Source of the DNA: an uncultured Lachnospiraceae bacterium
GTDB lineage: Bacteria > Bacillota > Clostridia > Lachnospirales > Lachnospiraceae
Assembly: GCA_902773435.1 (NCBI GenBank)
Contig: CACYEN010000151.1
Span: 1,195 to 65,194 of the forward strand
Direction of reading: 5' to 3'
Length of the DNA: 64,000 nt
Shown: in pieces, positions 5,551 through 60,854 of the stretch
Numbering within the stretch: position 1 is the first letter of the stretch
Layout: each line of letters opens with the position of its first letter
Notes under the pieces: model-generated
What the model was told of the DNA's origin: nothing
Seen by the model: the letters and a program-made list of their open reading frames with translations, nothing else
Databases searched by the model: none
Made by a program: the position numbers and the translations under genes

Positions 5551-6744
5551 TTATTCCGCAAACACGTGCGGACGCTTTCCGACTGTCAGGTCTCTCCAGA
5601 ACGGGGACATCCCTCTCAGGTACGTCACGACGTCCTCCACCGATTTTATGATATAGTCGACGTCTTCCTCCGTGAAATCCTCCCCGAGGCTCAGGCGGAG
5701 CGATCCGTGCGCCACCTCGTGGGGCCTTCCGATCGCGAGCAGGACGTGGCTCGGATCCAGCGAGCCCGACGTGCAGGCGCTTCCCGAGGACGCGCAGATT
5801 CCCTTGTCGTCCAGGAGCAGGAGGAGGGATTCCCCCTCGATGCCCTCAAAGCAGAAGTTGACATTGCCGGGGAGACGGTGCTCCCGGTCCCCGTTCAGCT
5901 CGCCGTAGGGGATCCTGTCCAGGCCGTCGATGAGGCGGTCCCGGAGGGCGGTCATTTTCTCCGTGTATGTGTCGATCGAGCCGCACGCCTCCTCAAGTGC
6001 CGCCGCGAGCCCCAGGATTCCCGGAAGATTCTCGGTCCCGGCCCGCTTCCCGCGCTCCTGGGCGCCGCCGCTGATCAGGCTCTCGAGCCGGATGCCCTTC
6101 TTTGCGCAGAGGACGCCGACGCCCTTCGGGCCGTGGAACTTGTGGGCGGAGAGGGAGAGCATGTCGATGTTCTGCTCGGTCATGTTGATGTGAATGTGCC
6201 CTGCAGCCTGGACCGCGTCGGTGTGGAACAGGACGCCTCTGCCGCGGCATACCGCGCCGATCTCAGGAATCGGCTGAATCGTGCCGATCTCGTTGTTCGC
6301 GTACATGACGGTCACGAGGCAGGTGTCATCACGGATCGCCTCCTCCACCTGACCGGGCGTGATGAGGCCACTGCTGTGGACGTCGAGCAGGGTGACCTCA
6401 AAGCCCTCCTCCTTCTTCAGCTTGTCCAGCGTGTGGAGGACCGCGTGGTGCTCAAACGCGGTGGAAATGATGTGCTTCTTCCCCTTGCGCGCCCCCAGGT
6501 GGGCGGCGGTGATGATAGCCTGGTTGTCAGCCTCGCTGCCGCCGGACGTGAAGGTCACCTCGGCGGGCTGGCATCCGAGGCACGCCGCGACACGGGCCCT
6601 CGCGTCCTCAAGCAGTTCCTTCGCCTTCTGCCCGTACTCGTAGAGGCTGGAGGGATTGCCGTAATTTTCGTTCATGCAGGTCACCATGGCGTCGATGGCG
6701 GCCCTGCTCATCCTGGTTGTAGCTGCGTTGTCTGCATAGATCAT
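5551..6744 (-). CDS. nifS: Cysteine desulfurase NifS/IscS
   Basis: IYADNAATT, HTDAVQA, SAHKFHGPKG (PLP Lys), SSGSACTS (catalytic Cys). Confidence 0.97.
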   Translation of the reverse strand: MIYADNAATTRMSRAAIDAMVTCMNENYGNPSSLYEYGQKAKELLEDARARVAACLGCQPAEVTFTSGGSEADNQAIITAAHLGARKGKKHIISTAFEHHAVLHTLDKLKKEEGFEVTLLDVHSSGLITPGQVEEAIRDDTCLVTVMYANNEIGTIQPIPEIGAVCRGRGVLFHTDAVQAAGHIHINMTEQNIDMLSLSAHKFHGPKGVGVLCAKKGIRLESLISGGAQERGKRAGTENLPGILGLAAALEEACGSIDTYTEKMTALRDRLIDGLDRIPYGELNGDREHRLPGNVNFCFEGIEGESLLLLLDDKGICASSGSACTSGSLDPSHVLLAIGRPHEVAHGSLRLSLGEDFTEEDVDYIIKSVEDVVTYLRGMSPFWRDLTVGKRPHVFAE

Positions 6745-46269: not shown

Positions 46270-47532
46270 TTATACCAGCGCCGCGAGCTCCGGGAACACG
46301 CTGAGCCCGCGCTTCAGGATCCCGTTCATCGCCGCGATCGCGATGCCGTAGTTGGTGAACGGGATGCCCTGATCGACCGCGCACTTCATGCGGCAGACCA
46401 CCTCGCGGCTGTTGAGCATGCAGGCCCCGCAGTGAATGACGAGGGCGTAGGGACTGAGGTCCTCCGGGAAGGAGTTCCCGCTGCTCGTCTCGAACTCAAG
46501 GTCCGCGCCGGTCGTCTTTCTCAGTAGGTTGGGGATCTTGACCGTGCCGATATCCTCGCACTGCCTGTGGTGCGTACATCCCTCCGAGATCAGGACCCGG
46601 TCGCCGTCCCTGAGCCCGCCGATCTTCGCGACGCCCCTGACGGCTTCTTCAAGAAAGCCCCTGTAATTCGCCATCAGGATTGAAAATGACGTGAGCGGTA
46701 TATCCGCCGGCGTCTCCGCGGCCGCGAGGGCGAACACCTGGCTGTCGGTGATGACGACGGACGGCCTTCTCGCAAGCCCCGCCAGTGTTCCGCGAAGCTC
46801 CGTATCCCGCGTCACGATGGCCTGGGCCCCCCGGTCGAGAAGATCGCGGATGACCTGCTGCTGGGGGAGAATCAGGCGGCCCTTCGGAGCGGATTTGTCG
46901 ATCGGGACGACGAGGACGGCAAAATCTCCGGCGCCGACCGATTCCGGGACAATCCGCGCCGCGTCCGCTTCCTGGGGGACGATCCGGCTGATCCGGTTCT
47001 TCAGCTCCTCGATACCGGTTTTCTCAAGCGCGCTCACGAAGACGCAGCGGTCCGCGCAGTCGCGGAGCGCGCCCGCAGGGCTGACGGAGTCCGGGACCAG
47101 GCCGGCGGATTCCGCGGAGGCGGCTCCGGATGCCTCGAGCAGGTCCGCCTTGTTCCGCGCGATGAGGTAGGGGATCTTCTTCTCATCGAAGAGACGGATC
47201 AGCTCAAGATCGCATTCCGTGAGCGGCCTCGTAGCATCGGTGACCAGGACGGCGGCATCCGTCCTGTTGAGGATCTGTTTTGTCCTGCGGACTCTCAGGT
47301 CCCCGAGACTTCCGGAGTCGTCGAAGCCCGGAGTGTCGATGATGACGACGGGGCCGAGCGGCAGGAGCTCCATGGCCTTGCGCACGGGGTCCGTCGTGGT
47401 GCCGCGGATCTCCGAGACGACGGAGAGCTCCTGTCCGGTGACGGCGTTGACGAGGCTGGACTTTCCGGCATTTCTGAGGCCGAAGAAACCTATGTGAAGC
47501 CGTTCGGACGACGGTGTTTCGTTCATGCTCAT
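46270..47532 (-). CDS. hydF: [FeFe]-hydrogenase H-cluster maturation GTPase
   Basis: GLRNAGKSS, GTTTDPV, DTPG, NKAD, PKGRLILPQ, EGCTHH...IHCGAC cluster ligands; GGAGG RBS before 47532. Confidence 0.97.
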   Translation of the reverse strand: MSMNETPSSERLHIGFFGLRNAGKSSLVNAVTGQELSVVSEIRGTTTDPVRKAMELLPLGPVVIIDTPGFDDSGSLGDLRVRRTKQILNRTDAAVLVTDATRPLTECDLELIRLFDEKKIPYLIARNKADLLEASGAASAESAGLVPDSVSPAGALRDCADRCVFVSALEKTGIEELKNRISRIVPQEADAARIVPESVGAGDFAVLVVPIDKSAPKGRLILPQQQVIRDLLDRGAQAIVTRDTELRGTLAGLARRPSVVITDSQVFALAAAETPADIPLTSFSILMANYRGFLEEAVRGVAKIGGLRDGDRVLISEGCTHHRQCEDIGTVKIPNLLRKTTGADLEFETSSGNSFPEDLSPYALVIHCGACMLNSREVVCRMKCAVDQGIPFTNYGIAIAAMNGILKRGLSVFPELAALV

Positions 47533-47625: not shown

Positions 47626-47680
47626 ACGGAACGGCTGAACGGGATGACCTGTAAATATGAGTGGCATTTTCGGAAATATA

Positions 47681-47942
47681 TGTTATGATGTATAGACGAA
47701 GCTTGACCGGAAAGGGGCGGAAGGCGCCTGACCGCGAAAGCAGTGTGACCGGGGGTGAAGGCCTCCGGATGAAGGAACGGCCGCCGGAAGAGGAGCGGTT
47801 TTTCAGGCGGAAAAAAGAGACGAACGATTAACCTGAGATTGAAACCCCGGTTGAGATCGAAGATGCGTTGGAACGGAAATGACGGCGCGGCCCGGCAGGG
47901 CTGCCGTTTTTTGGCGCATTCTTCGGAATGGGCCTCTTTTTT
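47681..47942 (+). promoter_or_regulatory. Extended -10 promoter and ~260 nt structured leader with terminator/antiterminator (riboswitch or attenuator candidate)
   Basis: TGtTATGAT at 47681-89; hairpins with U-tracts at 47882-47912 and 47913-47942; AAGATGCGTT (~47860) can sequester the 5' arm of the last hairpin. Confidence 0.5.
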
Positions 47943-47957
47943 ATGAAAGGATACGGC

Positions 47958-48203
47958 ATGAACAACAGGATCGCGATACTCGGCATCATCGTGGAAAAGC
48001 CCGAAGCGGGAAACCTTGTGCAGGAGCTGCTCCACAGCTGCGCGGCCCATATCGTCGGGCGGATGGGTATCCCCTACAGGGAGAAGGGTGTCAGCATCAT
48101 CAGCGTAGCCCTCGACGCGCCCGCGGATGTGATCAACACGCTCGCCGGCAGGATCGGCAGTCTGGACGGCGTGAGCGCGAAGGCGATCTACGCGAAAAAC
48201 TGA
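47958..48203 (+). CDS. TM1266-family putative [FeFe]-hydrogenase system regulator (ACT-like)
   Basis: RIAILGIIVE, IVGRMGIPY, IISVALDA...GRIGSLDGVSAK; 81 aa. Confidence 0.88.
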   Translation: MNNRIAILGIIVEKPEAGNLVQELLHSCAAHIVGRMGIPYREKGVSIISVALDAPADVINTLAGRIGSLDGVSAKAIYAKN

Positions 48204-48212
48204 GGAGAAGCC

Positions 48213-48968
48213 ATGAATCAGAATGCCTTGAAGATAGCAGTCTACGGAAAAGGCGGCATCGGAAAATCCACGATCTGTTCCGCCCTCTCCCTTGCGCTCG
48301 CGGAGAGAGGCCTTAAGGTGATGCAGATCGGCTGCGACCCGAAGGCGGATTCCACCATGTCCCTCCGCGCCGGCAGGCGGCTGCCGACGGTCCTCGCGAC
48401 GATGAGGGAGCGGAAAGACGATTTCTCCCTCGAAGACGTGTGCCTTGAGGGGGCCGGCGGGGTGATCTGCGTCGAGGCTGGCGGCCCGCTTCCCGGACTC
48501 GGGTGTGCGGGACGGGGAATCATCACGGCGCTCGAGAAGCTGAAGGCAAAGGGCGTCTACGGGCGCTACAGCCCGGACGCCGTGATCTACGACGTGCTGG
48601 GCGACGTCGTCTGCGGCGGCTTCTCCATGCCGATGAGGAGCGGCTTCGCCGACAGGGTTTACATCGTCACCTCCGGTGAGAATATGTCGATCTACGCGGC
48701 GGCGAATATCGCCTCGGCGGTCAGGAATTTCGGGGAGCGCGGCTACGCGGCCCTCGGAGGTTTTATCCTGAACCGCAGAGATGTCGAAAATGAGAGAGAA
48801 AAAGTCCTGGCGCTCTGCGGGGATTTCGATTCGGAGATCACGGGGGAGCTCCCGCTCTCGGAGAAGATCCGGGAGGCAGAGGCCCGGGGGAAATCCTTCA
48901 TGGAGCTCTTCCCTAAGAGCGAAGAGGCGGAATGCGTGAGAGCCCTCTCGCGGGCGATCTTCACGTGA
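48213..48968 (+). CDS. NifH/BchL/CfbC-like Fe protein (module 1)
   Basis: YGKGGIGKST, GCDPKADST, GGPLPGLGCAGRG, DVLGDVVCGGF. Confidence 0.95.
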   Translation: MNQNALKIAVYGKGGIGKSTICSALSLALAERGLKVMQIGCDPKADSTMSLRAGRRLPTVLATMRERKDDFSLEDVCLEGAGGVICVEAGGPLPGLGCAGRGIITALEKLKAKGVYGRYSPDAVIYDVLGDVVCGGFSMPMRSGFADRVYIVTSGENMSIYAAANIASAVRNFGERGYAALGGFILNRRDVENEREKVLALCGDFDSEITGELPLSEKIREAEARGKSFMELFPKSEEAECVRALSRAIFT

Positions 48969-49073
48969 CGGGAAGGGCCTGAGGGGGCAGAGAAGAGCGC
49001 GGATGAGGGCGCGGAACCGGAGTCTTTATGAGCGCGGGGAAGACGGGACAGGCCGGACGGCACGGAGAACCAG

Positions 49074-50402
49074 ATGCTGAGAAAGATCGGTGAAGAACTG
49101 AATACGGAAGGCGTGATGACGACTGCGGGGGAGGCGGCATTTCCGGCCCCGTTCCCGGAGGAGCTGGAGTTCAGCTCCCCGGCAAGGGGGACCTGGAACA
49201 TCGTGCACACCGGCCTCCTGATTCCGGAGGCCCACGAGATCTTCGTGTGCGCGCGGGGCTGCCTGCGGGGCGTCGTCCTGACCGCCGCGGAGGCGAACGC
49301 CCTTCACCGGTATTCCGCGGTCCAGATCCGCGAGGAAAATGTCCTCGACGGCTCAATGGAACAGCTGATGGTCGGAGGCGTCGCCGACGTCCTGAGGAAG
49401 CTTCCCTACAGGCCGAGGGCGGTGCTGCTCTTTATCAGCTGTCAGCATTTTTTCCTGGCCTACGACCAGGAATATGTCTTCAGAACCCTGAGGGAGCGGT
49501 TCCCGGACATCCGCTTCGCCGACTGCTACATGATCCCGACGCTCCGGAAGAGCGGGATCACGCCGGACCAGAAGATGCGGATCCAGCTCTACAGCATGCT
49601 GGACCGGGTGGAGAAGGATCCCCGGAAAATCAACCTCATCGGCAGCAACATCGCGGTCAGCGGGAGCTGCGAATGGGTCCTCTGGCTGAGACGGCACGGG
49701 TTTGAGCTCAGGACGCTGCAGGCGTGCCGGACATTTGACGAGTACCTGGCGATGGGGGAGTCATTTCTGAATCTGTACTGCGAACCGCTCGCCCACATGG
49801 CGGCGCGGTCCCTCGAGGAGCGGCTCGGCCAGGAGGCCCTGTACCTGCCCTTCGTCTTCAATCCGGGGGAACTGGATGAGATTTACCGGGGGTTCGCCCG
49901 GCGTCTCGGTCTCCCGGAACCGGATTTCGGCGAGGAGAAGCGCAGGGCGGACGCGGCGATGCGGCGGGCGAAGGAGCTCATCGGCGACACCCCGGTGGCG
50001 GTGGACTACACCTTTACGTTCCGGATCCTGAGCTTTGTCAGGATGCTGCTCGCGTACGGCTTCAACGTGACGGACATCTACGCGGACAGCTTCAGCCCGG
50101 AGGAACGGGATGACTTTGAGAGGATCCGCCGGGACCGCCCGGGGATCCGGATCTGGGCGACCAACCGCCCGAAGATGCGGTTCGCGAAGCGGGAGAGCGG
50201 GGAGAAGGTGCTCGCGGTAGGACAGAAGGCCGCGTATTTCAAGGGTACCGGACATTTTGTAAATGTCGCCGAGAGCGGCGGATTCTACGGCTATGACGGC
50301 ACGGAGCGGATCGCCGCCCTGATGGAAGAGGCCTTCATTGAGGAGAAGGACACGCGGGACCTCGTCCAGAGGAAAGGTTACGGGTGTCCGAGCTGCATAT
50401 AG
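49074..50402 (+). CDS. Nitrogenase component-1-like subunit A (module 1)
   Basis: VCARGCLRG, E.NVLDG, FISCQHFFLAYD, YLP, FYGYDG pattern; C-terminal CPSC. Confidence 0.85.
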   Translation: MLRKIGEELNTEGVMTTAGEAAFPAPFPEELEFSSPARGTWNIVHTGLLIPEAHEIFVCARGCLRGVVLTAAEANALHRYSAVQIREENVLDGSMEQLMVGGVADVLRKLPYRPRAVLLFISCQHFFLAYDQEYVFRTLRERFPDIRFADCYMIPTLRKSGITPDQKMRIQLYSMLDRVEKDPRKINLIGSNIAVSGSCEWVLWLRRHGFELRTLQACRTFDEYLAMGESFLNLYCEPLAHMAARSLEERLGQEALYLPFVFNPGELDEIYRGFARRLGLPEPDFGEEKRRADAAMRRAKELIGDTPVAVDYTFTFRILSFVRMLLAYGFNVTDIYADSFSPEERDDFERIRRDRPGIRIWATNRPKMRFAKRESGEKVLAVGQKAAYFKGTGHFVNVAESGGFYGYDGTERIAALMEEAFIEEKDTRDLVQRKGYGCPSCI

Positions 50403-50439
50403 ACGCGTCCGGACACACCGGGCGGAAGGAGAGCGCGGG

Positions 50440-51681
50440 ATGAGGCAGGTGACAGGACTCACAAGTACATATTCCTCCGATGAATTCGGGATCTGTTCTG
50501 CGCTCTTCGAGCTCGGCGGCCTCGTTGTGATGCACGACGCGTCCGGCTGCAACTCCACCTACACGACGCACGACGAGCCGAGATGGTACGACATGGACAG
50601 CATGGTCTATATCTCGGCTGTCTCGGAGATCGAGGCCATCATGGGCGACGACGACAAGCTGATCCGGGATGTCGTCTCCGCGGCGCGGGAACTGAAACCC
50701 CGGTTCACGGCTCTCATCGGGGCCCCGATCCCCTACATGATCGGAACCGACCTCCCCGCCGTCGCGGGGATCGTGGAGGAGGAGACGGGGATCCCGTCGA
50801 TCGGGTTTCCGGCGAACGGCATGGGCCTCTATACGAAGGGCATCTCGATGGCGCTCGCGGCGGTCACGGAGCGGTTCGCGCAAGGAGAGACGGGGAGGAG
50901 CAGGGAGCCGTCGATGAACGTCATCGGGCTCACACCGCTAGATTTCTCCCTCAACGGGACCGCGGAGTCGATCTGGAGATGGGCGGAGGCGCTGGGATTC
51001 CGAAGGGGCGCCTGCATGGCGATGGGAAGCAGCCTCGACGAGATCTCCCGGGCCGGGGAGGCGCACGTGAACCTCGTGGTCTCCTACGGAGGCCTGGAGG
51101 CGGCGAGGATCCTCGAGAGGAGGTACGGCACGCCCTGGATCGCCGGCGTCCCGTTCGGAAAGGCCTTCGCGGAGCGGCTCGGGCAGCTCGTTCTCGAGGC
51201 GGCCGGGACCGGGGGCAGGGAGATGGCGGCATACCGCAGTGTGCCGCGCGCCGGGGCTGCGGGGCGGGATCCCGCGCCGAACCCGGCCCGGGACGCGGCA
51301 CGGGGGAAGGAATCCCCGCTCCTCGTGGTCGGGGAGAGCGTGTACAGCGCCTCCTTCGCGGCAGCGGTCGAGCTCGAGCTGAATATCCCGACAAGGGTGC
51401 TCTGCCCGGTGGATACCGAGGATGTTCTGCTCAGGGAGGGGGACCGAAGGACGCCCGAGGAGGACGACCTCATCGAGGCGTTCCGCGGGGCGGAGCGCGT
51501 GGCCGCGGACCCGCTGTTCCGGCAGCTTGTACCGGAGACCGCGGAGTTCTTCGACCTGCCCCACGAGGCATTTTCCGGGAGGATCTACGACAGGGTCAAC
51601 CGGAACATGGTGGATGTGCCGCTCGACGGATTTATTTTCGGGGGAACAAAGGCGCCGCGCGGGAAGGGACCGCGCGGCTGA
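50440..51681 (+). CDS. Nitrogenase component-1-like subunit B (module 1)
   Basis: HDASGC, EIEAIMGDDDKL, MIGTDL, AHVNLVV..GLEAARILERRYGTPW; GGAG RBS before 50440. Confidence 0.85.
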   Translation: MRQVTGLTSTYSSDEFGICSALFELGGLVVMHDASGCNSTYTTHDEPRWYDMDSMVYISAVSEIEAIMGDDDKLIRDVVSAARELKPRFTALIGAPIPYMIGTDLPAVAGIVEEETGIPSIGFPANGMGLYTKGISMALAAVTERFAQGETGRSREPSMNVIGLTPLDFSLNGTAESIWRWAEALGFRRGACMAMGSSLDEISRAGEAHVNLVVSYGGLEAARILERRYGTPWIAGVPFGKAFAERLGQLVLEAAGTGGREMAAYRSVPRAGAAGRDPAPNPARDAARGKESPLLVVGESVYSASFAAAVELELNIPTRVLCPVDTEDVLLREGDRRTPEEDDLIEAFRGAERVAADPLFRQLVPETAEFFDLPHEAFSGRIYDRVNRNMVDVPLDGFIFGGTKAPRGKGPRG

Positions 51682-51697
51682 AGGAGTACATGCGAAG

Positions 51698-52474
51698 ATG
51701 CTGAAACTTGCGATATACGGAAAAGGCGGCATAGGAAAATCAACGACGACGGGCAATCTCGCCGCGGCGTTCGCCGTGCTCGGGAAGCGCGTGATCCAGA
51801 TCGGCTGCGACCCCAAGGCGGACTCCACGATCAACCTGCTCGGCGGGACGCCGGCGGTCTCCGTGATGGACTACATGCGGGAGCACGACGAGGAGCCGGA
51901 GCGGCTCGACGAGATCGCGAAGGAGGGCTTCGGCGGCGTGCTCTGCATCGAGACGGGCGGCCCCACGCCGGGCCTCGGCTGCGCGGGGAGAGGCATCATC
52001 ACCACGTTCAGCCTGCTCGAGGACCTTGAGCTCTTCGAGACGAGGGATCCGGACGTGGTGCTCTACGACGTGCTCGGGGACGTCGTCTGCGGCGGCTTCG
52101 CCGCCCCGATCCGCGAGGGTTACGCCGAGGATATCCTGATCGTCACCTCGGGCGAGAAGATGGCGCTCTACGCCGCGAACAATATCTGCCAGGCGGTGAA
52201 AAACTTCGAGGACAGAGGGTACGCGTCGGTGAAGGGAATCATTTTAAACCGCCGGAACGTGGAAAATGAGCGGGAGAAGGTCGAGGCGTTCGCCGCGGAG
52301 CGGGGGCTCCCGATCCTCGCGGACATACCGCGGAGCGACGACATCATCCGGTTCGAGGACGAGGGGAAGACCGTCATAGAGGGCGGGCCCGACCTGCCGG
52401 TCAGCAGAATCTACCTGAACCTGGCGAGGCGGCTGCTCGCGGACGAAGAGGGACAGAAAGGACAGGACACATAA
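51698..52474 (+). CDS. NifH/BchL/CfbC-like Fe protein (module 2)
   Basis: YGKGGIGKST, GCDPKADST, GGPTPGLGCAGRG, DVLGDVVCGGF; AAGGAG RBS before 51698. Confidence 0.95.
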   Translation: MLKLAIYGKGGIGKSTTTGNLAAAFAVLGKRVIQIGCDPKADSTINLLGGTPAVSVMDYMREHDEEPERLDEIAKEGFGGVLCIETGGPTPGLGCAGRGIITTFSLLEDLELFETRDPDVVLYDVLGDVVCGGFAAPIREGYAEDILIVTSGEKMALYAANNICQAVKNFEDRGYASVKGIILNRRNVENEREKVEAFAAERGLPILADIPRSDDIIRFEDEGKTVIEGGPDLPVSRIYLNLARRLLADEEGQKGQDT

Positions 52475-52479
52475 ACAAG

Positions 52480-53784
52480 ATGGGAAATGACGCCTACTAC
52501 ATCACGGCCGGCGAACTCGCGGCGGCGGGCAGCGGACAGATCCCGGACGAACTCCGGTCCGCCCGGCACCTGATCTACAGCTCCCCGGCGACGCTCGCCT
52601 TCAACTCCCCCGGGGCCCAGGGCTTCGGCGTGAAGAGGGCGGGGCTCGCCGTCCCCGGCTCGGTGATGCTGCTCGTCTCCCCCGGGTGCTGCGGCCGGAA
52701 TACGACACTGCTGACGGAGAGACGGGAATACGACGGGAGATTCTTCTTCCTGCTCATGGATGAGACGGACATCGTCACCGGCCGCCACCTCCGGAAGATT
52801 CCGGACGCGGTCCGGGAGGTTGTCGCGGCCTGCGCGGAGCGGCCGACCTCGGTGATGATCTGCATCACCTGCGTCGACGCGCTGCTCGGCACGGATATGG
52901 ACAGGGTCTGCAGGAAGGCCTCCGAGGCGGCGGGGGTCCCGGTGCTCCCCTGCTACATGTACGCCCTGACCCGCGAGGGCAGGATCCCGCCGATGGCGGC
53001 GGTGAGGAAGACGGTCTACCAGCTCCTCGAAAAGAGGAAGAAGAGGGCGTCGAGCGTCAATATCCTGGGGTCGTTTACCCCCTATGACGACGACTCCGAG
53101 CTGTACGGCATTCTCCGGGGGATCGGCATCAGGAAGATCCGGGAGATCTCGAGATGCGAAGATTTTGAGTCCTATCTGGAGATGGCGGAGGCCAACTTCA
53201 ACCTCGTCCTCAACCCGGAGTCGCGCGTGGCCGCGGCGGATCTTGAGAAGAGGCTCGGCATTCCGTTCATCGAGATGACGAGGGTCTACCAGATCGACAA
53301 GATCCACCGCCAGTATGAGCTGTTCGGCGCCGCGCTCGGCGTGATGGTCGACGACTCGGCCTGGATGGCGGAGGCGGAAGCCGCGGTCGCGGATTTCAGG
53401 GAGAGGTATCCGGACGCGGCATTCTCGGTCGGAGAGTGGCTGAACGCCGATCCGTTCGAGCTCTCGCTCGCCCTCCTCCGGTACGGGTTCCGCGTCAATG
53501 AGATCTTCGGGACGGTGACGGACGTGAACCGGATCTACATCCGGAGGATTGCGGAGATCAGCCCGGAGACGAGGATCTACACGAATCTCTCGCCGACCAT
53601 GCTCTTCTACGACTGCGCGGGCGGGGAGGACGTCATCACGCTCGGCAAAGACGCGGGCTATTATCATCCGGACGGCGTGAACGTCCCCTGGAACGACGAG
53701 CAGCAGCCGTTCGGCTACCGCGGACTCACCCGCCTCTTTGAGAGGCTTGCGGAGGCAGCCGGGAAAGCGGAGGGCATATCATGA
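52480..53784 (+). CDS. Nitrogenase component-1-like subunit A' (module 2)
   Basis: SPGCCGRN, ETDIVTG, ITCVDALLGTD, AEANFNLV, LEKRLGIPF, FGYRG. Confidence 0.87.
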   Translation: MGNDAYYITAGELAAAGSGQIPDELRSARHLIYSSPATLAFNSPGAQGFGVKRAGLAVPGSVMLLVSPGCCGRNTTLLTERREYDGRFFFLLMDETDIVTGRHLRKIPDAVREVVAACAERPTSVMICITCVDALLGTDMDRVCRKASEAAGVPVLPCYMYALTREGRIPPMAAVRKTVYQLLEKRKKRASSVNILGSFTPYDDDSELYGILRGIGIRKIREISRCEDFESYLEMAEANFNLVLNPESRVAAADLEKRLGIPFIEMTRVYQIDKIHRQYELFGAALGVMVDDSAWMAEAEAAVADFRERYPDAAFSVGEWLNADPFELSLALLRYGFRVNEIFGTVTDVNRIYIRRIAEISPETRIYTNLSPTMLFYDCAGGEDVITLGKDAGYYHPDGVNVPWNDEQQPFGYRGLTRLFERLAEAAGKAEGIS

Positions 53785-54884
53785 GAGGACTGATCAGATA
53801 CCTGTCCCCGTTCGCGCCCGACCAGTCGGGCGCCTCCGGGGTGTTCTACGATCTCGGCGGCCTGATCGTCATCTGCGACGCGGGCGGCTGCACCGGCAAC
53901 ATCTGCGGCTTTGACGAGCCGAGATGGTTTTCCCGCAGGAGCGGCATCATGAGCGCGGGGCTCCGCGACATGGACGCCATCCTCGGGCGGGACGACCAGC
54001 TTGTGGAGAAGCTGAAGTCAGCCGTCACACGCCTCGGCGCGCCATTCGCGGTTCTCATCGGGACGCCTGTTCCGGCGGTGATCGGGACGGATTTCCGGGC
54101 ACTCGGGAAGATGGCCGGGAAGCGCTGCGGAATCCCGGTCCTGACGGTCTCCTGCAAGGGGACCGGCCTCTACGACGAGGGCGAGGAGGAGGCGTATCTC
54201 AGTTTGATGGAGGCATTTGCCGGCGGGAGCGGCGGCGGGGATGATGCCGGGGATGCCGCTCCCCTGAAAGGACTCGTCGGCGTCATCGGCGCGACGCCGC
54301 TCAGCACGGACACCGCGATGCCGCCCGAGCGGCTCTCCTCGGCGCTCGGGACGGACCGCCTCCTCTGCTACGGGGCGGCCGGGGGCCTCTCCGCCGTGCG
54401 AAGGGCTCCCCGCGCCGAGAAGAACCTTGTGATCTCGCCCTCGGGGATCCGCGCCGCGGAGTACCTGAGGGAACGCTTCGGGACCCCTTACGAGGCCGCA
54501 TATCCGCTGGTCCCGCGCCCGGTCATCGAGACGTATCCGGAGCTTCGGGGGAAGAGAGTCCTCGTCGTCCACCAGCAGTTCGCCGCCAACGCGGTGAGGG
54601 AGGGCCTTGCCGGCGCGGGGTGCGAGGACGTGACGTGCGCGACATTTTTTATGATGAAAGAGGAGTACGCGAAGCCCGGAGACGCACGCTTCTCCACCGA
54701 GGAGAGTTTCACCCGCTTCGTGGAGGGGGGAGGATTTGACGCCGTCATCGGCGACCGCTTCCTGAGCCGCGCCGTCCGGGGATTCCGGGGGAGGTGGATT
54801 CACATGCCTGAGTTCGCGGTGTCGGGAGAGTGCGCCGACGTCGGGGAAACCGGGGAGGGCCCTGAAAGGAAGTCCGGAACATGA
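53781..54884 (+). CDS. Nitrogenase component-1-like subunit B' (module 2)
   Basis: CDAGGC, DAILGRDDQL, VIGTDF, AEKNLVI..GIRAAEYLRERFGTPY; ATGA overlaps on both sides. Confidence 0.85.
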   Translation: MRGLIRYLSPFAPDQSGASGVFYDLGGLIVICDAGGCTGNICGFDEPRWFSRRSGIMSAGLRDMDAILGRDDQLVEKLKSAVTRLGAPFAVLIGTPVPAVIGTDFRALGKMAGKRCGIPVLTVSCKGTGLYDEGEEEAYLSLMEAFAGGSGGGDDAGDAAPLKGLVGVIGATPLSTDTAMPPERLSSALGTDRLLCYGAAGGLSAVRRAPRAEKNLVISPSGIRAAEYLRERFGTPYEAAYPLVPRPVIETYPELRGKRVLVVHQQFAANAVREGLAGAGCEDVTCATFFMMKEEYAKPGDARFSTEESFTRFVEGGGFDAVIGDRFLSRAVRGFRGRWIHMPEFAVSGECADVGETGEGPERKSGT

Positions 54885-57235
54885 CGGATCAGACGCTTAA
54901 GATTCCCACAAATCACATAAGGATGTACGGGATCGTGCAGGGCGTCGGCTTTCGCCCGTTCGTGAGCCGCGCCGCGATGAGATGCGGCATCCGCGGGAGC
55001 GTCGCCAACCGGGGCTCCTACGTCGAGATCTTCGCGCAGGGGGACGCGGAGGCGATGGGGAGGTTCCTGGACATCCTGAAAAATGATCCCCCCGAACGCT
55101 CCGTCGTCCTCAAGATTGACGTCTCGGAGTGCGGGGCAGCCGCGTTCGATGCATTTGACATCATCGAGAGCGAAAAGGAGACAGGCGATATCTTCGTGTC
55201 CCCCGACATCGCGACCTGCCCGAAGTGCAGGGAGGAGCTCTACAGCCCGGGAAACCGGCGGTACATGCATCCGTTCATCAACTGCACGGCCTGCGGGCCG
55301 AGGCTCACGATCCTCGACTCCATGCCCTACGACCGGGTCAGGACCAGCATGGGGGAATTCCCGATGTGCCCGGAGTGCGCGCGGGAGTACACGGATCCGG
55401 CGACTCGGAGGTACGACGCCCAGCCGGTGTGCTGCCCGGACTGTGGCCCGGAGGTGTACCTGGCCGGAAGGAGGGAGCGCGGCCGGGAGGCAATCACGGC
55501 GGCGAGGCGCGCGATCATGGAGGGAAAGATCGTCGCGGTCAAGGGTATCGGCGGCTTCCATCTCTGCTGCGACGCGTCGCGCGGGGAGGCTGTCGGGAGG
55601 CTGAGGGAGCTCAAGAGACGGCCGGCGAAGCCGTTCGCGGTCATGATGAGGGACCTCGGCGCGGTCCGCAGGGAGTGCGTGATCGGGCCGGAGATGGAGG
55701 CGGAACTGGACAACCACCAGAAGCCGATCATCCTGCTCCCGAAGAGGGCGGGCGGGCGAATTGCGGACGCCGTCGCGCCCGACAATCCGAACGTCGGCGT
55801 GATGCTGCCGTACGCGCCGGTGCAGATGCTTCTGTTCGACTACGACGACGGCCTTGAGATGACGACGGACATGTTTGTGATGACGAGCGGAAACATCTCG
55901 GGCGCGCCGATCTGCCGCACCGACGACGAGGCGGTCCGCGAGATCAGCTCCTTCTGCGATCTGATCCTTACGCACAACCGGAAGATCCGCCTGAGGGCCG
56001 ACGACTCGGTCATGGACTTCTACCGGGGAAAGCCCTATATGATCCGCCGCTCGAGGGGCTACGCGCCGCTCCCGTTCATGACGGCGCGGGAATACGCGCA
56101 CTGCGTGCTGGCGGTCGGGGGGGAGCTGAAAAACACCTTCTGCATCGGGAAAAACCAGCTCTTCTACCCGTCCCCCTACGTCGGGGACATGGAGGACATC
56201 CGGACCGTCGAGGTCCTTAGGGAGTCCATCCGCCGCATGTCGGAACTTCTGGAGGCGGACATCGAAGCGGTGGCGTGCGACCTGCATCCGAAGTATAATA
56301 CGACTGTCGTGGCAGAGGAACTCTGTCTCCCGGTCTTCCGTGTACAGCATCACTACGCGCACATCCTGTCCTGCATGGCCGAGAATGACGCCGACGGTCC
56401 CGTGATCGGCGTCTCGTTCGACGGGACCGGATACGGGACGGACGGGACGATCTGGGGCGGGGAGATCATGATCGCGGACCGGGCCGGCTTCACGAGGGAG
56501 GCGAGCATCCGCCCGTTCCCCCAGGCCGGAGGAGACGCCTCGGCCCGGGAGGGATGGAGAATCGCGGCCTCCATGATCAACAGTCTCTGCCCGGAGGAGG
56601 AAGCCGCGGACATCGCGGAGCGCCTGTCCATATGCGACGGGAGGGAGGCGCGGATCATCCGGAAGATGTGCGAAAAGCGCATAAACTGCGTCACCTCGAC
56701 GAGCGCGGGACGGCTCTTCGACGCGGTCAGCGCGGTGCTCGGCATACGCAGGAGCTCGACGTTCGAGGGCGAGGCCTCGATCGCGCTCGAGTTCCGCGCG
56801 GAGGAATGGGAGGCGGAGGCGAAACCCGGACTCACGGGCGGGGTGTTCGCGGATGTTCCCCGTGAACCCGAACCGGGGGAGGGGGACGGCCGCCTGATCC
56901 TTCCGACGGACCGGCTCTTCGACCGGATCCTGAGGGCCCGCCTCGCCGGCGGCGGCGCTGGAGAACTCGCGTATCTCTTTCACTTTGAGCTCGCGCGGCA
57001 GATCGCCAGCGCCGTCGGGCGGATCTCGGATCGAAGCGGGATCCGGGTATGCGCTCTTTCCGGAGGCGTCTTCCAGAACAGGCTGCTTCTCCGGCTGTGC
57101 GACGGCATGCTGAGGAAGGCTGGATTCGAGGTGCTCCTTCACAGCCTCGTCCCCCCGAACGACGGAGGGATCGCGCTCGGCCAGGCGCTGGCGCTGACGG
57201 AGGCGATGGAGAGGGGGACGTTTCCGCCGTCGTAA
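54881..57235 (+). CDS. hypF: Carbamoyltransferase HypF
   Basis: GIVQGVGFRPFV acylphosphatase domain, two CxxC-x-CxxC zinc fingers, KGIGGFHL, RRSRGYAP, QHHYAH, PPNDGGIALGQ. Confidence 0.98.
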   Translation: MTDQTLKIPTNHIRMYGIVQGVGFRPFVSRAAMRCGIRGSVANRGSYVEIFAQGDAEAMGRFLDILKNDPPERSVVLKIDVSECGAAAFDAFDIIESEKETGDIFVSPDIATCPKCREELYSPGNRRYMHPFINCTACGPRLTILDSMPYDRVRTSMGEFPMCPECAREYTDPATRRYDAQPVCCPDCGPEVYLAGRRERGREAITAARRAIMEGKIVAVKGIGGFHLCCDASRGEAVGRLRELKRRPAKPFAVMMRDLGAVRRECVIGPEMEAELDNHQKPIILLPKRAGGRIADAVAPDNPNVGVMLPYAPVQMLLFDYDDGLEMTTDMFVMTSGNISGAPICRTDDEAVREISSFCDLILTHNRKIRLRADDSVMDFYRGKPYMIRRSRGYAPLPFMTAREYAHCVLAVGGELKNTFCIGKNQLFYPSPYVGDMEDIRTVEVLRESIRRMSELLEADIEAVACDLHPKYNTTVVAEELCLPVFRVQHHYAHILSCMAENDADGPVIGVSFDGTGYGTDGTIWGGEIMIADRAGFTREASIRPFPQAGGDASAREGWRIAASMINSLCPEEEAADIAERLSICDGREARIIRKMCEKRINCVTSTSAGRLFDAVSAVLGIRRSSTFEGEASIALEFRAEEWEAEAKPGLTGGVFADVPREPEPGEGDGRLILPTDRLFDRILRARLAGGGAGELAYLFHFELARQIASAVGRISDRSGIRVCALSGGVFQNRLLLRLCDGMLRKAGFEVLLHSLVPPNDGGIALGQALALTEAMERGTFPPS

Positions 57236-57339
57236 GGGCATGGAGATACAGAGAGCGGCGGACAGGTAACGGGACGCGGAGAACGGAAATACAGGCTTTG
57301 AAACAGGAAAAAGATCAGTAAGAGACGGAGGAATAAGTT

Positions 57340-57546
57340 ATGTGTGTAGGGCTTGCGGCAAAAGTCGTCGGAATCAGGAACGGGACCGCGCTTGTGGACG
57401 CTAACGGGGCGAAGCGGGAGGTCTCCGCGCAGCTTCTCGAGGACCTTGAGCCCGGCGACTACGTGATGGTGCACGCGGGCGTCGCGATCGCGAAGATCAC
57501 GGACGACGACGGGGATGAGACGGACGCGCTCATGGAGATGCTCTGA
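57340..57546 (+). CDS. hypC: HypC chaperone
   Basis: N-terminal MC(VGLAAK), GDYVMVHAGVAI. Confidence 0.95.
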   Translation: MCVGLAAKVVGIRNGTALVDANGAKREVSAQLLEDLEPGDYVMVHAGVAIAKITDDDGDETDALMEML

Positions 57547-57599
57547 TAATAATGACAGCCATGGCCGCCGACGCGGCCGTGTTGAAAGCGGGACGGATA

Positions 57600-58670
57600 A
57601 TGACAGATATCATGGAAAAGAGAGAGCCGGCGAGAAAGTCGGCGCGGGAGATCATTGAGAGCTACGACGGCCCGAAGCTCCGGATCATGGAGGTCTGCGG
57701 GACACACACTCACGAGATCTTCCGGCTGGGCATCCGGTCCCTTCTTCCCGATACGATCGAGCTGGTCTCAGGCCCGGGATGCCCGGTCTGCGTGACGCCG
57801 GTCGGCTTTGTGGACGAGGCGGTGATGCTCGCGCTTGAGAAGGGGGCGGTGGTCTGCACGTTCGGCGACCTGATCCGTGTCCCGGGGACGAAGATGTCAC
57901 TGGCGGGGGCGCGCGCCGAGGGCGCGAGGATCCGCATCGTGTACGCGCCGGACGACGCGGTGGAGTACGCCGCCGCGCATCCTGAGGAGCAGGTGGTCTT
58001 CCTGGCAGTCGGATTCGAGACGACGACCCCGGCCGCCGCGCTGGCCGTCAGGAGGGCGCGGGACGAGAAGATCGAAAACTTCTCGATCCTCACCGCGAAC
58101 AAGACGATGCCGAACGCGTATCTCGCGCTCAGGGGAAGCGCCGACGCCTTCCTCTATCCTGGCCACGTGAACGCGATCACGGGGGAGACGGAGTGCAGAA
58201 GGCTTGCGGAGGAGAGCGGCATCTCCGGCGTCATCGCCGGTTTCACCGCGAAAGAGCTCCTCACCGCGCTGGCCGTGATTATAGAGAAGTCGAAGACCGG
58301 GGAGCCGTTTTTCGTGAACTGCTACCCGAGGGTCGTGCGCCCGGAGGGCAACCCCGCCGGGCTCAGCCTGATCCGCGAGGTGATGGAGCCCTGCGACTCC
58401 GAGTGGAGGGGGCTCGGCATCATCCCGATGTCCGGCCTGAGGCTCAGGGAGGAGTACCGCGGGTATGACGCCCGGGTCAGGTTCGCGCTGCCGAAGATCG
58501 AGGGACGCCCCAATCCCGCGTGCCGCTGCGGGGAGGTTCTTCAGGGGAAATGCCGCCCCTCCGATTGCCGCGTATTCGGAAAGGGGTGTACGCCCGAGCA
58601 TCCGGTCGGCGCGTGTATGGTGTCGAGCGAGGGCGCCTGCGCGGCCTATTACCAGTACGGCGCGAAGTGA
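57600..58670 (+). CDS. hypD: HypD Fe(CN)2CO scaffold
   Basis: MEVCGTH, GPGCPVC, GFETT, PGHV, C-terminal Cys cluster ending GACMVSSEGAC. Confidence 0.98.
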   Translation: MTDIMEKREPARKSAREIIESYDGPKLRIMEVCGTHTHEIFRLGIRSLLPDTIELVSGPGCPVCVTPVGFVDEAVMLALEKGAVVCTFGDLIRVPGTKMSLAGARAEGARIRIVYAPDDAVEYAAAHPEEQVVFLAVGFETTTPAAALAVRRARDEKIENFSILTANKTMPNAYLALRGSADAFLYPGHVNAITGETECRRLAEESGISGVIAGFTAKELLTALAVIIEKSKTGEPFFVNCYPRVVRPEGNPAGLSLIREVMEPCDSEWRGLGIIPMSGLRLREEYRGYDARVRFALPKIEGRPNPACRCGEVLQGKCRPSDCRVFGKGCTPEHPVGACMVSSEGACAAYYQYGAK

Positions 58671-58749
58671 ACGGCGGCCGGGAGGAGGGTATCCGAACCG
58701 GGCAGCCATTTTTGAGAAATCGACAGTTATGAAGGAGTGTGGGACTTAA

Positions 58750-59754
58750 ATGGACAGAAGAGTAACCCTGGCGCACGGCGCGGGAGGAAAGCAGACCGGA
58801 GAGCTGATCCGCGAGGTTTTCAGGAAGCATTTTTCCAATCCGGAATTTACCGCGGACGACGCGGCCGTCCTCGATCTCGGGACGGGCAGGATCGCGATGA
58901 CGACGGACGGTTTCATCGTCTCCCCGTACAGGTTTCCTGGCGGCAACATCGGAAAGCTCAGCATCTGCGGGACCGTCAACGACCTGGCGTGCATGGGCGC
59001 GAAGCCGATGTACATGACCTGCTCGTTCGTCATCGAGGAGGGATTCCCGATGGACGAGCTGGAGGAGATCGCCGCGGCGATGGAGAAGACCGCCGCGGAG
59101 GCGGGCGTGCGGATCGTGGCGGGCGACACGAAGGTCGCCGGAAAGGGGCAGGTTGACCATGTCTTTATCACGACGACCGGCATCGGGGCGCTGACGGAGG
59201 GCGTGTCCCTGTCGGGCGCGAAAGCCCGCCCGGGCGACGCGGTCATCGTGACCGGCGATGTCGGCCGGCACGGCTGCACGATTCTCCTCGCCAGGGAGGA
59301 GCTGGGAATCGACGCCGACGTGAAGAGCGACTGTGCGCCGCTCTCCGGGCTCGTGGAATCCGTGCTGAGGGCGACGAAAGACATACACGTGATCAGGGAC
59401 GCGACGCGGGGCGGCGTCGGCACCGTCCTCTACGAGATCGCGGAACAGAGCGGCGTCGGCGTGCGCGTCGACCAGGCTGCGGTGCCCGTGGACGGGGCTG
59501 TCGGCGGCGTGTGCGGCATGCTGGGACTCGACCCGCTCTATCTCGCCAACGAGGGGACCATGGTCGTCGTCGCGCCGAAGGAGCGCGCGGAGAGCGTGCT
59601 CGAAGCGCTTCACTCCCACCCGTACGGTGAGAAGGCCGCCCTCATCGGCGAGATCACCGGGGACAACGCGGGCAAAGTCATCGTCACGACCGAGATCGGC
59701 ACGGAGACCCTTCTTCCCCAGCCGGGGGGAGAACTGCTGCCGAGGATCTGCTGA
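58750..59754 (+). CDS. hypE: HypE carbamoyl dehydratase
   Basis: LAHGAGG, GTVNDL, GDTKV, RDATRGG, ANEG, C-terminal LPRIC. Confidence 0.98.
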   Translation: MDRRVTLAHGAGGKQTGELIREVFRKHFSNPEFTADDAAVLDLGTGRIAMTTDGFIVSPYRFPGGNIGKLSICGTVNDLACMGAKPMYMTCSFVIEEGFPMDELEEIAAAMEKTAAEAGVRIVAGDTKVAGKGQVDHVFITTTGIGALTEGVSLSGAKARPGDAVIVTGDVGRHGCTILLAREELGIDADVKSDCAPLSGLVESVLRATKDIHVIRDATRGGVGTVLYEIAEQSGVGVRVDQAAVPVDGAVGGVCGMLGLDPLYLANEGTMVVVAPKERAESVLEALHSHPYGEKAALIGEITGDNAGKVIVTTEIGTETLLPQPGGELLPRIC

Positions 59755-59786
59755 GGCGGACGGCCGCCTCACAAGCGGGGTTTTGA

Positions 59787-60854
59787 ATGAACGTGAATCT
59801 TTCAGAGAAAATCATATTAAGGCTCGCCGAAGAAGGGGACCTTCCCGATTCTGAACTTCTCGCGCTGATCGGGAGCGGGGAGTTCGACGGCCTGCTGTTC
59901 CGCCTCGCCGACCTGAAGCGCCGCGAGCGCTACGGGGACGAGGTCTTCGTCAGGGGTCTCATCGAATTCTCCAATTACTGCAGAAATGACTGCTACTACT
60001 GCGGAATCCGCCGGAGCAACGGCAGCGCGGAGCGCTACCGCCTGACGAAGGAAGAGATCATGGAGTGCGCCGCCTCGGGGTACGGGCTCGGCTACAGGAC
60101 ATTTGTGCTTCAGAGCGGCGAGGATCCGTATTATACTGATGACAGGATCTGTGAGATCGTGGCCGCGCTCCGCGCCGCCCACCCGGACTGCGCGATCACG
60201 CTGTCGATCGGGGAGAAGCCTAAGGAGAGCTACAGGGCTTATTTCGAGGCCGGGGCGAACCGCTACCTGCTCCGCCACGAGACCGCGGACAGCGGCCACT
60301 ACGGGAAACTTCACCCGGCATCCATGAGCCCTGACAACAGGAAGCGCTGTCTCTTCGACCTGAAGGAGATCGGCTACCAGGTCGGCGCGGGTTTCATGGT
60401 CGGGACGCCCGGCCAGACAGCGGAGAACCTCGTCAGCGACTTCCGGTTTATGCAGGAACTCAGGCCGGACATGATCGGGATCGGCCCGTTCATGACGCAC
60501 AGCCAGACGCCGTTTGCCGGCTGCCCGAACGGGAGCTTTCCCCTCACGCTGCGGCTGCTCGCGGTCACGAGGCTGATGTTCCCGTACGCCCTGATCCCGG
60601 CGACGACCGCGCTCGGGACGATTCATCCGCTGGGAAGGGAGCAGGGGCTTAAGGCGGGCTGCAACGTCGTGATGCCGAATCTCTCGCCGGTGAGGTTCAG
60701 GAAGAAGTACGAGCTCTACGACAACAAGATCTGCACGGGAGAGGAGTCGGCCGAGTGCCGCTCCTGCCTGGAGGCCCGCGTCGCGGCCGCCGGCTACAGG
60801 GTGGTGACGGACGTCGGGGACGTGAGGCGGGATCCCGGAGCCGCCGGGAGATAA
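59787..60854 (+). CDS. hydE: Radical SAM H-cluster maturase HydE
   Basis: RGLIEFSNYCRNDCYYCGIR, LQSGED, YLLRHET, MIGIGPF, PATTAL, NVVMPN, YELYDNK and C-terminal Cx7Cx2C. Confidence 0.92.
   Translation: MNVNLSEKIILRLAEEGDLPDSELLALIGSGEFDGLLFRLADLKRRERYGDEVFVRGLIEFSNYCRNDCYYCGIRRSNGSAERYRLTKEEIMECAASGYGLGYRTFVLQSGEDPYYTDDRICEIVAALRAAHPDCAITLSIGEKPKESYRAYFEAGANRYLLRHETADSGHYGKLHPASMSPDNRKRCLFDLKEIGYQVGAGFMVGTPGQTAENLVSDFRFMQELRPDMIGIGPFMTHSQTPFAGCPNGSFPLTLRLLAVTRLMFPYALIPATTALGTIHPLGREQGLKAGCNVVMPNLSPVRFRKKYELYDNKICTGEESAECRSCLEARVAAAGYRVVTDVGDVRRDPGAAGR

Follow-up and report, generated by a model that had tools for sequence, protein, structure and literature searches.

We analyzed a 64,000-nucleotide stretch of DNA (the window) from an uncultured Lachnospiraceae bacterium and found an operon in which ten nitrogenase-like and hyp genes occupy the place of hydG among the maturation genes of [FeFe]-hydrogenases. 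HydG is considered to supply all of the CO and CN of the H-cluster and is thought to be essential. Judging from gene content and distribution among genomes, this cassette very probably stands in for HydG, by one or the other of two routes weighed below. The route that we consider probable is a HydG-independent supply of Fe(CO)2(CN)-cysteine to an ordinary HydE, for the maturation of [FeFe]-hydrogenases by HydE and HydF; the order of its steps is less certain than the replacement of HydG itself. The operon is real, conserved, and previously unstudied. The locus consists of a divergent hydF on the minus strand, followed on the plus strand (47958-60854) by TM1266-H1-D1-K1-H2-D2-K2-hypF-hypC-hypD-hypE-hydE.

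The principal evidence is the mutual exclusion of hydG and the cassette, for which a preliminary description, written from the sequence alone, had proposed phylogenetic profiling. Among 49 genomes whose cassette loci were picked by a D2 similarity scan (close kin included), none had HydG over the cut-off, HydA was found in 47, and a HydE-level match was present in 48 (not checked individually); the cassette genomes thus neither routinely carry hydG nor lack hydA. Ten mid-score matches to the HydG model (170 to 183 bits) in cassette genomes all exceeded the ThiH cut-off, and ThiH was rejected as a stand-in for HydG, being found in only these proportions (10 of the 49 genomes) and not in the window's own genome. 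We then considered two samples not chosen for the cassette, a class sample of 299 genomes with a completeness of 95% or more (G142 unscored and the window's own genome set aside) and a family sample of 74 genomes, one per genus, which share one genome and together comprise 372. In the class sample, HydG was found in 189 genomes and HydF in 199 (one weak), with 186 having both, 13 HydF only, 3 HydG only, and 97 neither. All nine genomes with a D1 orthologue (at least 39% identity) and all six with a D2 orthologue (more than 50% identity) and adjacent hypD were within the 13 HydF-only genomes, every one of which has HydA, and no D1 orthologue occurred in a HydG genome. In the family sample, 33 genomes had HydG, all with HydF, and 41 had HydF; the eight HydF-only genomes comprised six with the hyp-type cassette, one with an importer type, and one with a deleted TM1266-hydG remnant. 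Combined, 218 of the 239 HydF genomes carry HydG, 16 carry D1 (as D1K1), none carries both, and 5 carry neither (Fisher p = 6e-21, an overstated value, as kin are not independent). More telling than this p value are the split inside genus g65, where three of seven tabulated genomes have HydG without the cassette and four the cassette without HydG, and the one-contig genome G334, which has the cassette and four HydA matches and in which no HydG or [NiFe] subunit was found.

The gene arrangement is well beyond chance, because hypF immediately follows K2 in all 40 loci with enough contig, the other 9 of the 49 stopping at a contig edge. These loci span Lachnospiraceae, Anaerovoracaceae, Oscillospiraceae, Eubacterium, Selenomonas, and Lentisphaeria, and H2 is 69 to 87% identical over most of them. 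A cultured strain, Sarcina sp. DSM 11001, is among the carriers of the cassette. Of the 49 loci, 24 include TM1266, hydE, or hydF, in varied gene orders, and in six hydE or hydF is inserted between D2 and K2. In g65, D1K1 is placed between TM1266 and hydF, the slot of hydE and hydG in canonical operons, and in genome G254 a hydA encoding H-cluster motifs L1 to L3 is located immediately upstream of the cassette. Relatives that possess H2 often lack H1, which is missing from 13 of the 26 loci having D1, D2, and hypE (1 of these 13 is cut by a contig end). Natural D2-K2 fusions, which would suit expression and structural studies, were observed at L016, L017, L019, L021-L024, L034, L045, L150, and L151. 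In a Selenomonas cassette (L052), every gene appears frameshifted, as does the [NiFe]-linked hypD of that genome, probably through assembly errors.

In the window's own genome (G000, 88.9% complete), TIGR03955 matched only hydE (60 bits), a profile built from 19 HydG proteins likewise found no HydG, and no HydG with the C-terminal auxiliary-cluster domain of the canonical HydEFG system was detected; at this completeness, the absence is by itself no proof. HydE, HydF (single copy; one PF18133 match), and HydA are all present, in agreement with the earlier statement that the hyd set lacks only HydG. Two [FeFe]-hydrogenase catalytic genes were found, one of which is divided between contigs C42 and C150, follows two other subunit genes, and retains motifs L2 and L3. 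Profile searches found no [NiFe] large subunit in this incomplete genome, extending genome-wide what had been noted for the window, and no orphan large-subunit-like scaffold (best profile match, E 0.002). The earlier remark that a nickel branch is missing applies to the window and not to the genome, since hypB (over the cut-off) and a hypA-like gene (below the TIGR00100 cut-off) are located at C62:15068-16174. They belong to an operon (L157, C62:13506-19097) that also encodes a 969-amino-acid Fe-S flavoprotein and a 519-amino-acid oxidoreductase. Carbamoyl-phosphate synthase is encoded in the genome, as is a complete gcvT-H-PA-PB operon. According to the available text of PMC11736057, the glycine cleavage H-protein is the known source of the H-cluster bridge. 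A bridge derived from CN, as speculated in the preliminary description, is therefore not needed in this genome and found no support. GcvH was over the cut-off in just three of five genomes scanned, and some relatives may have a bridge source other than glycine cleavage.

HydE possesses the radical-SAM motif CX3CX2C, YDNK, and the complex-B pocket, and HydF is a GTPase with an intact P-loop and the Cys/His set of its Fe-S ligands. We found no group-specific position in HydE (11 cassette or importer versus 13 HydG-partnered sequences) or in HydF (12 versus 16). Apart from two methionines, the positions that we take to form the complex-B pocket of HydE were compared for conservation only. The two, equivalent to Met224 and Met291 as named in PMC10114646, are invariant. 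Because the pocket is unchanged, the predicted HydE substrate is complex B, and synthetic complex B alone is reported to substitute for HydG in vitro (excerpt of PMC11256358). The cassette thus has HydE, HydF, TM1266, and HydA clients in common with canonical HydEFG systems, as well as, in the window's own genome, glycine cleavage. It differs from them in its ten inserted genes and, by analogy with known Hyp chemistry, in a CN that would derive from carbamoyl phosphate instead of tyrosine.

The Hyp set, described earlier as F, C, D, and E with key motifs intact, was so confirmed: HypC has Cys2 and His45; HypD has CGTH, GPGCPVC, and the C-terminal Cys set; HypE ends in PRIC; and HypF has two zinc fingers. 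We searched for the [NiFe] large subunit in 80 genomes (42 from the class sample that have hypD, plus 38 of the 49 with cassette loci) and found it in all 36 non-cassette hypD genomes versus only 10 of 44 cassette genomes. Nine of these ten keep a second hypD, in seven cases on the large-subunit contig, which would serve the [NiFe] enzyme. Furthermore, in a quick HypD tree with a midpoint root only, 41 cassette proteins formed one group apart from 26 [NiFe]-linked ones, including copies from the same genome (Shimodaira-Hasegawa-like approximate likelihood ratio test, 100), with a long branch separating the groups. The idea of a dedicated Hyp paralogue mostly without a [NiFe] client thus stood. 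Compared with HypCDEF synthesis of Fe(CN)2CO for [NiFe]-hydrogenases, as outlined in the available text of PMC12134894, the cassette encodes the same four proteins, in which no canonical ligand or catalytic residue is missing, but its HypD forms a clade of its own, 34 of the 44 cassette genomes searched yielded no large subunit, and its hyp genes are coupled to nitrogenase-like genes and hydE/hydF.

The six genes separating TM1266 from hypF encode two NifH-like and four PF00148 component-1 proteins; the preliminary description had noted nif-like genes here. H1 and H2 score under the nifH cut-off, and the D and K proteins match PF00148 only, a combination (NifH-type Fe protein and component-1 fold) that places them in the nitrogenase-like (NFL) superfamily. 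An AlphaFold2 model of D2 (mean predicted local distance difference test score, 88.8) has the nitrogenase component-1 fold, and its top Foldseek matches are nitrogenase subunits at 11 to 19% identity; among solved structures, D2 and K2 come closest to NifE/NifN and NifD. Invariant cysteines are confined to the first ~130 residues. Those common to both pairs and distant relatives are D1 C63/C123, D2 C71/C131, and K1 C38/K2 C37, and the extra ones are D1 C59, D2 C70 and C128, and K2 C42. The D/K pairs have neither the FeMo-cofactor Cys (alpha-275 equivalent) nor the full P-cluster Cys set, an Asn in D2 is aligned with the NifE cofactor Cys, and NifB was over the cut-off in none of five genomes scanned, the window's own included. 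Because no NifB was found, one interfacial cluster per pair is the simplest reading, and by analogy with NifEN or DPOR each D/K interface likely holds one [4Fe-4S] cluster, an arrangement that would suit a bound metal complex undergoing one- or two-electron chemistry. The multielectron reduction of CN suggested earlier is accordingly unsupported; formation of CO from CO2 by a nitrogenase-like trio is possible. The available text of PMC13474568 describes NifEN, DPOR (BchNB), CfbCD, MAR, and ISR as likewise combining an Fe protein and a component-1 fold with a reduced Cys set. A cofactor-remodelling role of the cassette pairs would follow this analogy, although they are only 11 to 19% identical to these solved structures, lack the FeMo-cofactor Cys and NifB, and have an iron carbonyl-cyanide complex as their predicted substrate. 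A predicted complex of D2, K2, and HypC scored 0.00 in both runs, which counts neither way.

Not all members of the system carry hyp genes. Twelve of the 16 HydG-less D1K1 genomes have H2D2K2 and hypFCDE, and the other four have an ABC importer and no adjacent hyp or H2D2K2 genes. In the three such genomes of the class sample, H1-D1-K1 is joined by a periplasmic binding protein, a FecCD permease, and an ATPase, plus hydE, hydF, or TM1266, with no hypD; the four loci (L053, L054, L056, and L146 in G344, G143, G267, and G355) all place H1-D1-K1 and the importer among hydE/hydF/TM1266. The four binding proteins are 50 to 57% identical to that of G344, and the importer ATPase of G267 carries a fused TM1266 domain. 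In the D1 tree, the D1 proteins of the hyp and importer types fall together in a single clade (support, 100), and D2 is in a separate one. The earlier proposal that Hyp replaces HydG thus finds support as to the replacement, which fits the exclusion, but not as to the agent, since D1K1 is the constant part and Hyp is missing from 4 of the 16 genomes. Two arms can be distinguished (H2D2K2 with HypFCDE, and D1K1), because D2 implies D1 (an orthologue is present in 47 of the 49 cassette genomes), D1 also occurs without D2, and D2K2 accompanies hyp; in fact, H2D2K2 was never seen without hypF downstream where the contig continues. The importer belongs to the periplasmic-binding-protein-2/FecCD class, which handles metal chelates and not gases, and this suggests a metal complex as the substrate of D1K1. 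From these gene sets, the hyp type likely represents synthesis and the importer type salvage.

In the route that we propose, HypF and HypE would convert carbamoyl phosphate to a thiocyanate, and HypC-HypD would assemble an Fe(CN)x(CO)y unit, chemistry established for [NiFe] Hyp systems and assumed for the cassette. H2D2K2 might be the ATP-driven source of low-potential electrons needed to transfer CN or form CO; alternatively, it might take the Fe unit from HypC, replacing the large subunit. D1K1, reduced by H1 or H2, would then remodel the Fe-CO/CN precursor into complex B for HydE, with the net exchange of one CN for CO and chelation by cysteine. Relatives without hyp would obtain the precursor for this D1K1 step through the ABC importer. 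A broader version is, in our estimation, evenly balanced between true and false: a second, widespread H-cluster pathway in which Hyp makes an Fe-CN/CO unit, two nitrogenase-like reductases convert it to the HydE substrate, and hyp-less relatives import Fe-CO/CN from the gut community, in a cross-feeding like that of B12.

It is rather unlikely that the cassette replaces HydG through free or loosely bound ligands, with cyanide from HypF/HypE, CO made from CO2 by a trio, and complex B built on modified HypCD or D1K1 without an Fe(CN)2CO intermediate. This explains the same distribution, and the clade-specific conserved residues of the cassette proteins (8 in HypC, 12 in HypD, and 17 in HypE, with all canonical ligands kept) may reflect a scaffold retuned for one CN and two CO. 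Besides, the available text of a 2025 review (PMC12134894) states that the anaerobic CO source and the HypD electron donor of [NiFe] systems are unknown and that CO2-to-CO needs about -530 mV, i.e., an ATP-driven potential, of which an Fe protein could be the source; CooS, a candidate CO supplier, was rejected, as it was not found in any of the five genomes scanned, the window's own included. Nevertheless, importer-type D1K1 pairs with a metal-chelate importer, and nitrogenase CO2-to-CO conversion belongs to carbide-cluster enzymes (excerpt of PMC13474568), and here neither the Cys ligand nor the NifB of those enzymes was found. We regard as quite unlikely the idea that Hyp, HydE, and HydF were recruited to assemble a new Fe-CO/CN cofactor used by the nitrogenase-like proteins, one trio acting as scaffold and the other as catalyst in the manner of NifEN and NifDK, with HydA matured otherwise or poorly. 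The tandem paralogous trios do resemble nifDK plus nifEN, in keeping with the nearest solved relatives of D2/K2, and the clade-specific invariant Cys/His of D1 and D2 could bind a metal unit; however, this idea does not predict the exclusion from hydG genomes (0 of 218), HydE and HydF each occur as one unaltered copy, a HydA that retains its H-cluster motif set is nearly always encoded, and D1K1 occurs alone with an importer and so is not just one partner of a scaffold/catalyst pair.

A purely correlated history, in which some lineages lost hydG, living on ligands that are imported or present in traces, and a metal-handling cassette unrelated to it was inserted in the hyd operon and travelled along, appears highly improbable. 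It would accommodate the five HydF genomes without both systems and the H-D-K-importer operons without hyd genes, and the 49 loci were chosen by D2 similarity with close kin included. Yet the link holds in Lachnospiraceae, Anaerovoracaceae, Oscillospiraceae, Selenomonas, and Lentisphaeria with many gene orders, in the two samples not chosen for the cassette, and inside one genus, and an orphan hypFCDE with all catalytic residues needs a client.

Several points weigh against the remodelling route that we prefer. All of its chemical steps are inferred from gene distribution and not from biochemistry; Hyp systems give Fe(CN)2CO, and we know of no enzymatic exchange of CN for CO. Five of the 239 HydF genomes (G102, G119, G196, G309, and G397) have neither HydG nor D1, so HydE and HydF can persist without either, and G119 and G309 even retain tidy TM1266-hydE-hydF operons. 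Distant H-D-K-importer relatives (26 to 37% identity), which have no hyd neighbours, occur in three HydG-positive and four HydF-negative genomes, so that the wider family has another job. Most cassette genomes are incomplete metagenome-assembled genomes, and kin are not independent. In addition, active [FeFe]-hydrogenases have been reported in organisms lacking some or all maturases (excerpt of PMC11216029), and HydE plus HydF without HydG is reported to give ~1% activation (excerpt of PMC9431212).

The operons of G309 (L058) and G119 (L060), from genomes 95 to 99% complete with HydA present, suggest a third route, scavenging or recent loss; that of G119 adds an asparaginase gene. In G397, TM1266 is fused in frame to the C-terminal third of HydG (L152:7752-8435), adjoining a split hydF, and this locus is a decaying canonical operon. 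The distant H-D-K trios (L068-L072, L133, L153, and L154) have iron/B12-type importers and no hyd genes, and they fall outside the D1 and D2 clades; near two such loci, a CobW/HypB-like GTPase and a regulator of the Crp or a similar type are encoded. A plasmid search found only one distant operon of this kind, on a Treponema saccharophilum plasmid. Possibly, these operons represent an ancestral system for unpacking metal chelates.

The neighborhood was mentioned in 2012 by Dos Santos et al. (PMC3464626), who noted "NifHEN-like" pairs in the gut Firmicutes Coprococcus catus GD/7 as well as Dorea longicatena DSM 13814. Features in common are two linked H-D-K copies beside hydrogenase maturation genes and a set of conserved Cys, two of them in the D-like subunit and one in the K-like, and these pairs very likely belong to the same family. 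The available text of that paper gives them one speculative sentence, which names no hydrogenase type, absence of hydG, or importer variant of the D1 clade. Our literature search, which covered neither subscription journals nor supplements, found no publication on HydG replacement, and neither HydG nor HydE occurs in the available main text of a review of nitrogenase-like systems from 2026 (PMC13474568). We judge the system new in kind because no characterized system is known to supply HydE without HydG. If our proposal is true, a tyrosine-free route exists in ~7% of the sampled HydF-bearing Clostridia (16 of 239), and in 7 of 41 in the window's family, which would change the annotation, and perhaps the targeting, of hydrogen production by rumen and gut fermenters. 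It would also link the cofactor chemistries of the [NiFe] and [FeFe] families, treated as independent, and offer a handle on the CO source and HypD donor of [NiFe] systems. Furthermore, an uncharacterized nitrogenase-like clade, of a kind that the 2026 review calls a main gap of the field, would gain a substrate and a simple assay (hydrogenase activity), and the importer variant would predict a diffusible organometallic metabolite.

The features of the locus are listed in the table; gene calls were based on the open reading frame list and NCBIfam/Pfam family scans. Distances between genes from TM1266, the family that usually leads hyd maturation operons, to hydE are -4 to 105 nucleotides, and K2 shares 4-nucleotide overlaps with both D2 and hypF.

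Features of the cassette locus in the window
Feature	Position	Strand	Evidence
hydF, [FeFe]-hydrogenase maturation GTPase/scaffold	46270..47529	-	TIGR03918, 529 bits (cut-off, 326)
Candidate promoter	47661-47689	+	Consensus match only
~250-nucleotide leader, possible attenuator	47661..47912	+	Terminator-like hairpin 47887-47912 at its end; consensus match only
TM1266-family small protein	47958..48203	+	TIGR03959, 99 bits (cut-off, 61); start judged from sequence
H1, NifH-like ATP-dependent Fe protein	48213..48968	+	PF00142; P-loop and both cluster Cys
D1, component-1 alpha-like subunit	49074..50402	+	PF00148; invariant C59, C63, C123, H45
K1, component-1 beta-like subunit	50437..51681	+	PF00148; invariant C38, D34, H33, H45
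H2, second NifH-like Fe protein	51695..52474	+	Family scans; below nifH cut-off
D2, component-1 alpha-like subunit	52480..53784	+	PF00148; invariant C70, C71, C128, C131, H103
K2, component-1 beta-like subunit	53781..54884	+	PF00148; invariant C37, C42, D33, H264
hypF, carbamoyltransferase	54881..57235	+	TIGR00143, 730 bits (cut-off, 466)
hypC, Fe(CN)2CO carrier	57340..57546	+	Over NCBIfam cut-off; Cys2 and His45 present
hypD, scaffold	57552..58670	+	Over NCBIfam cut-off; all canonical Cys present
hypE, carbamoyl dehydratase	58750..59754	+	Over NCBIfam cut-off; C-terminus PRIC
hydE, radical-SAM maturase	59787..60854	+	TIGR03956, 532 bits (cut-off, 255); sole copy found

The leaders of 30 cassette loci share the motif TGAC-N-G-Y-R-AGG, a spacer, and CC-R-A-R-C-GG-R-A, followed by a terminator-like hairpin (e.g., L025:9017-9164 and L067:3625-3750; a further site is L089:10763-10791). 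The motif also precedes 1 hydG operon among 20 canonical loci; it was not found in this form in the window's own leader, and Rfam gave no match at the gathering score for the window region or a relative's leader. The conserved leader is possibly a riboswitch or a TM1266-binding RNA. Four RNA libraries from two studies contained short, near-identical pieces over the operon and the sugar-metabolism genes that flank it (depth, 2 to 7; contigs only), which do not demonstrate transcription or cotranscription of the operon. Far upstream, at 5551-6744 on the minus strand of the window, lies a gene for a class-V, cysteine-desulfurase-like aminotransferase.

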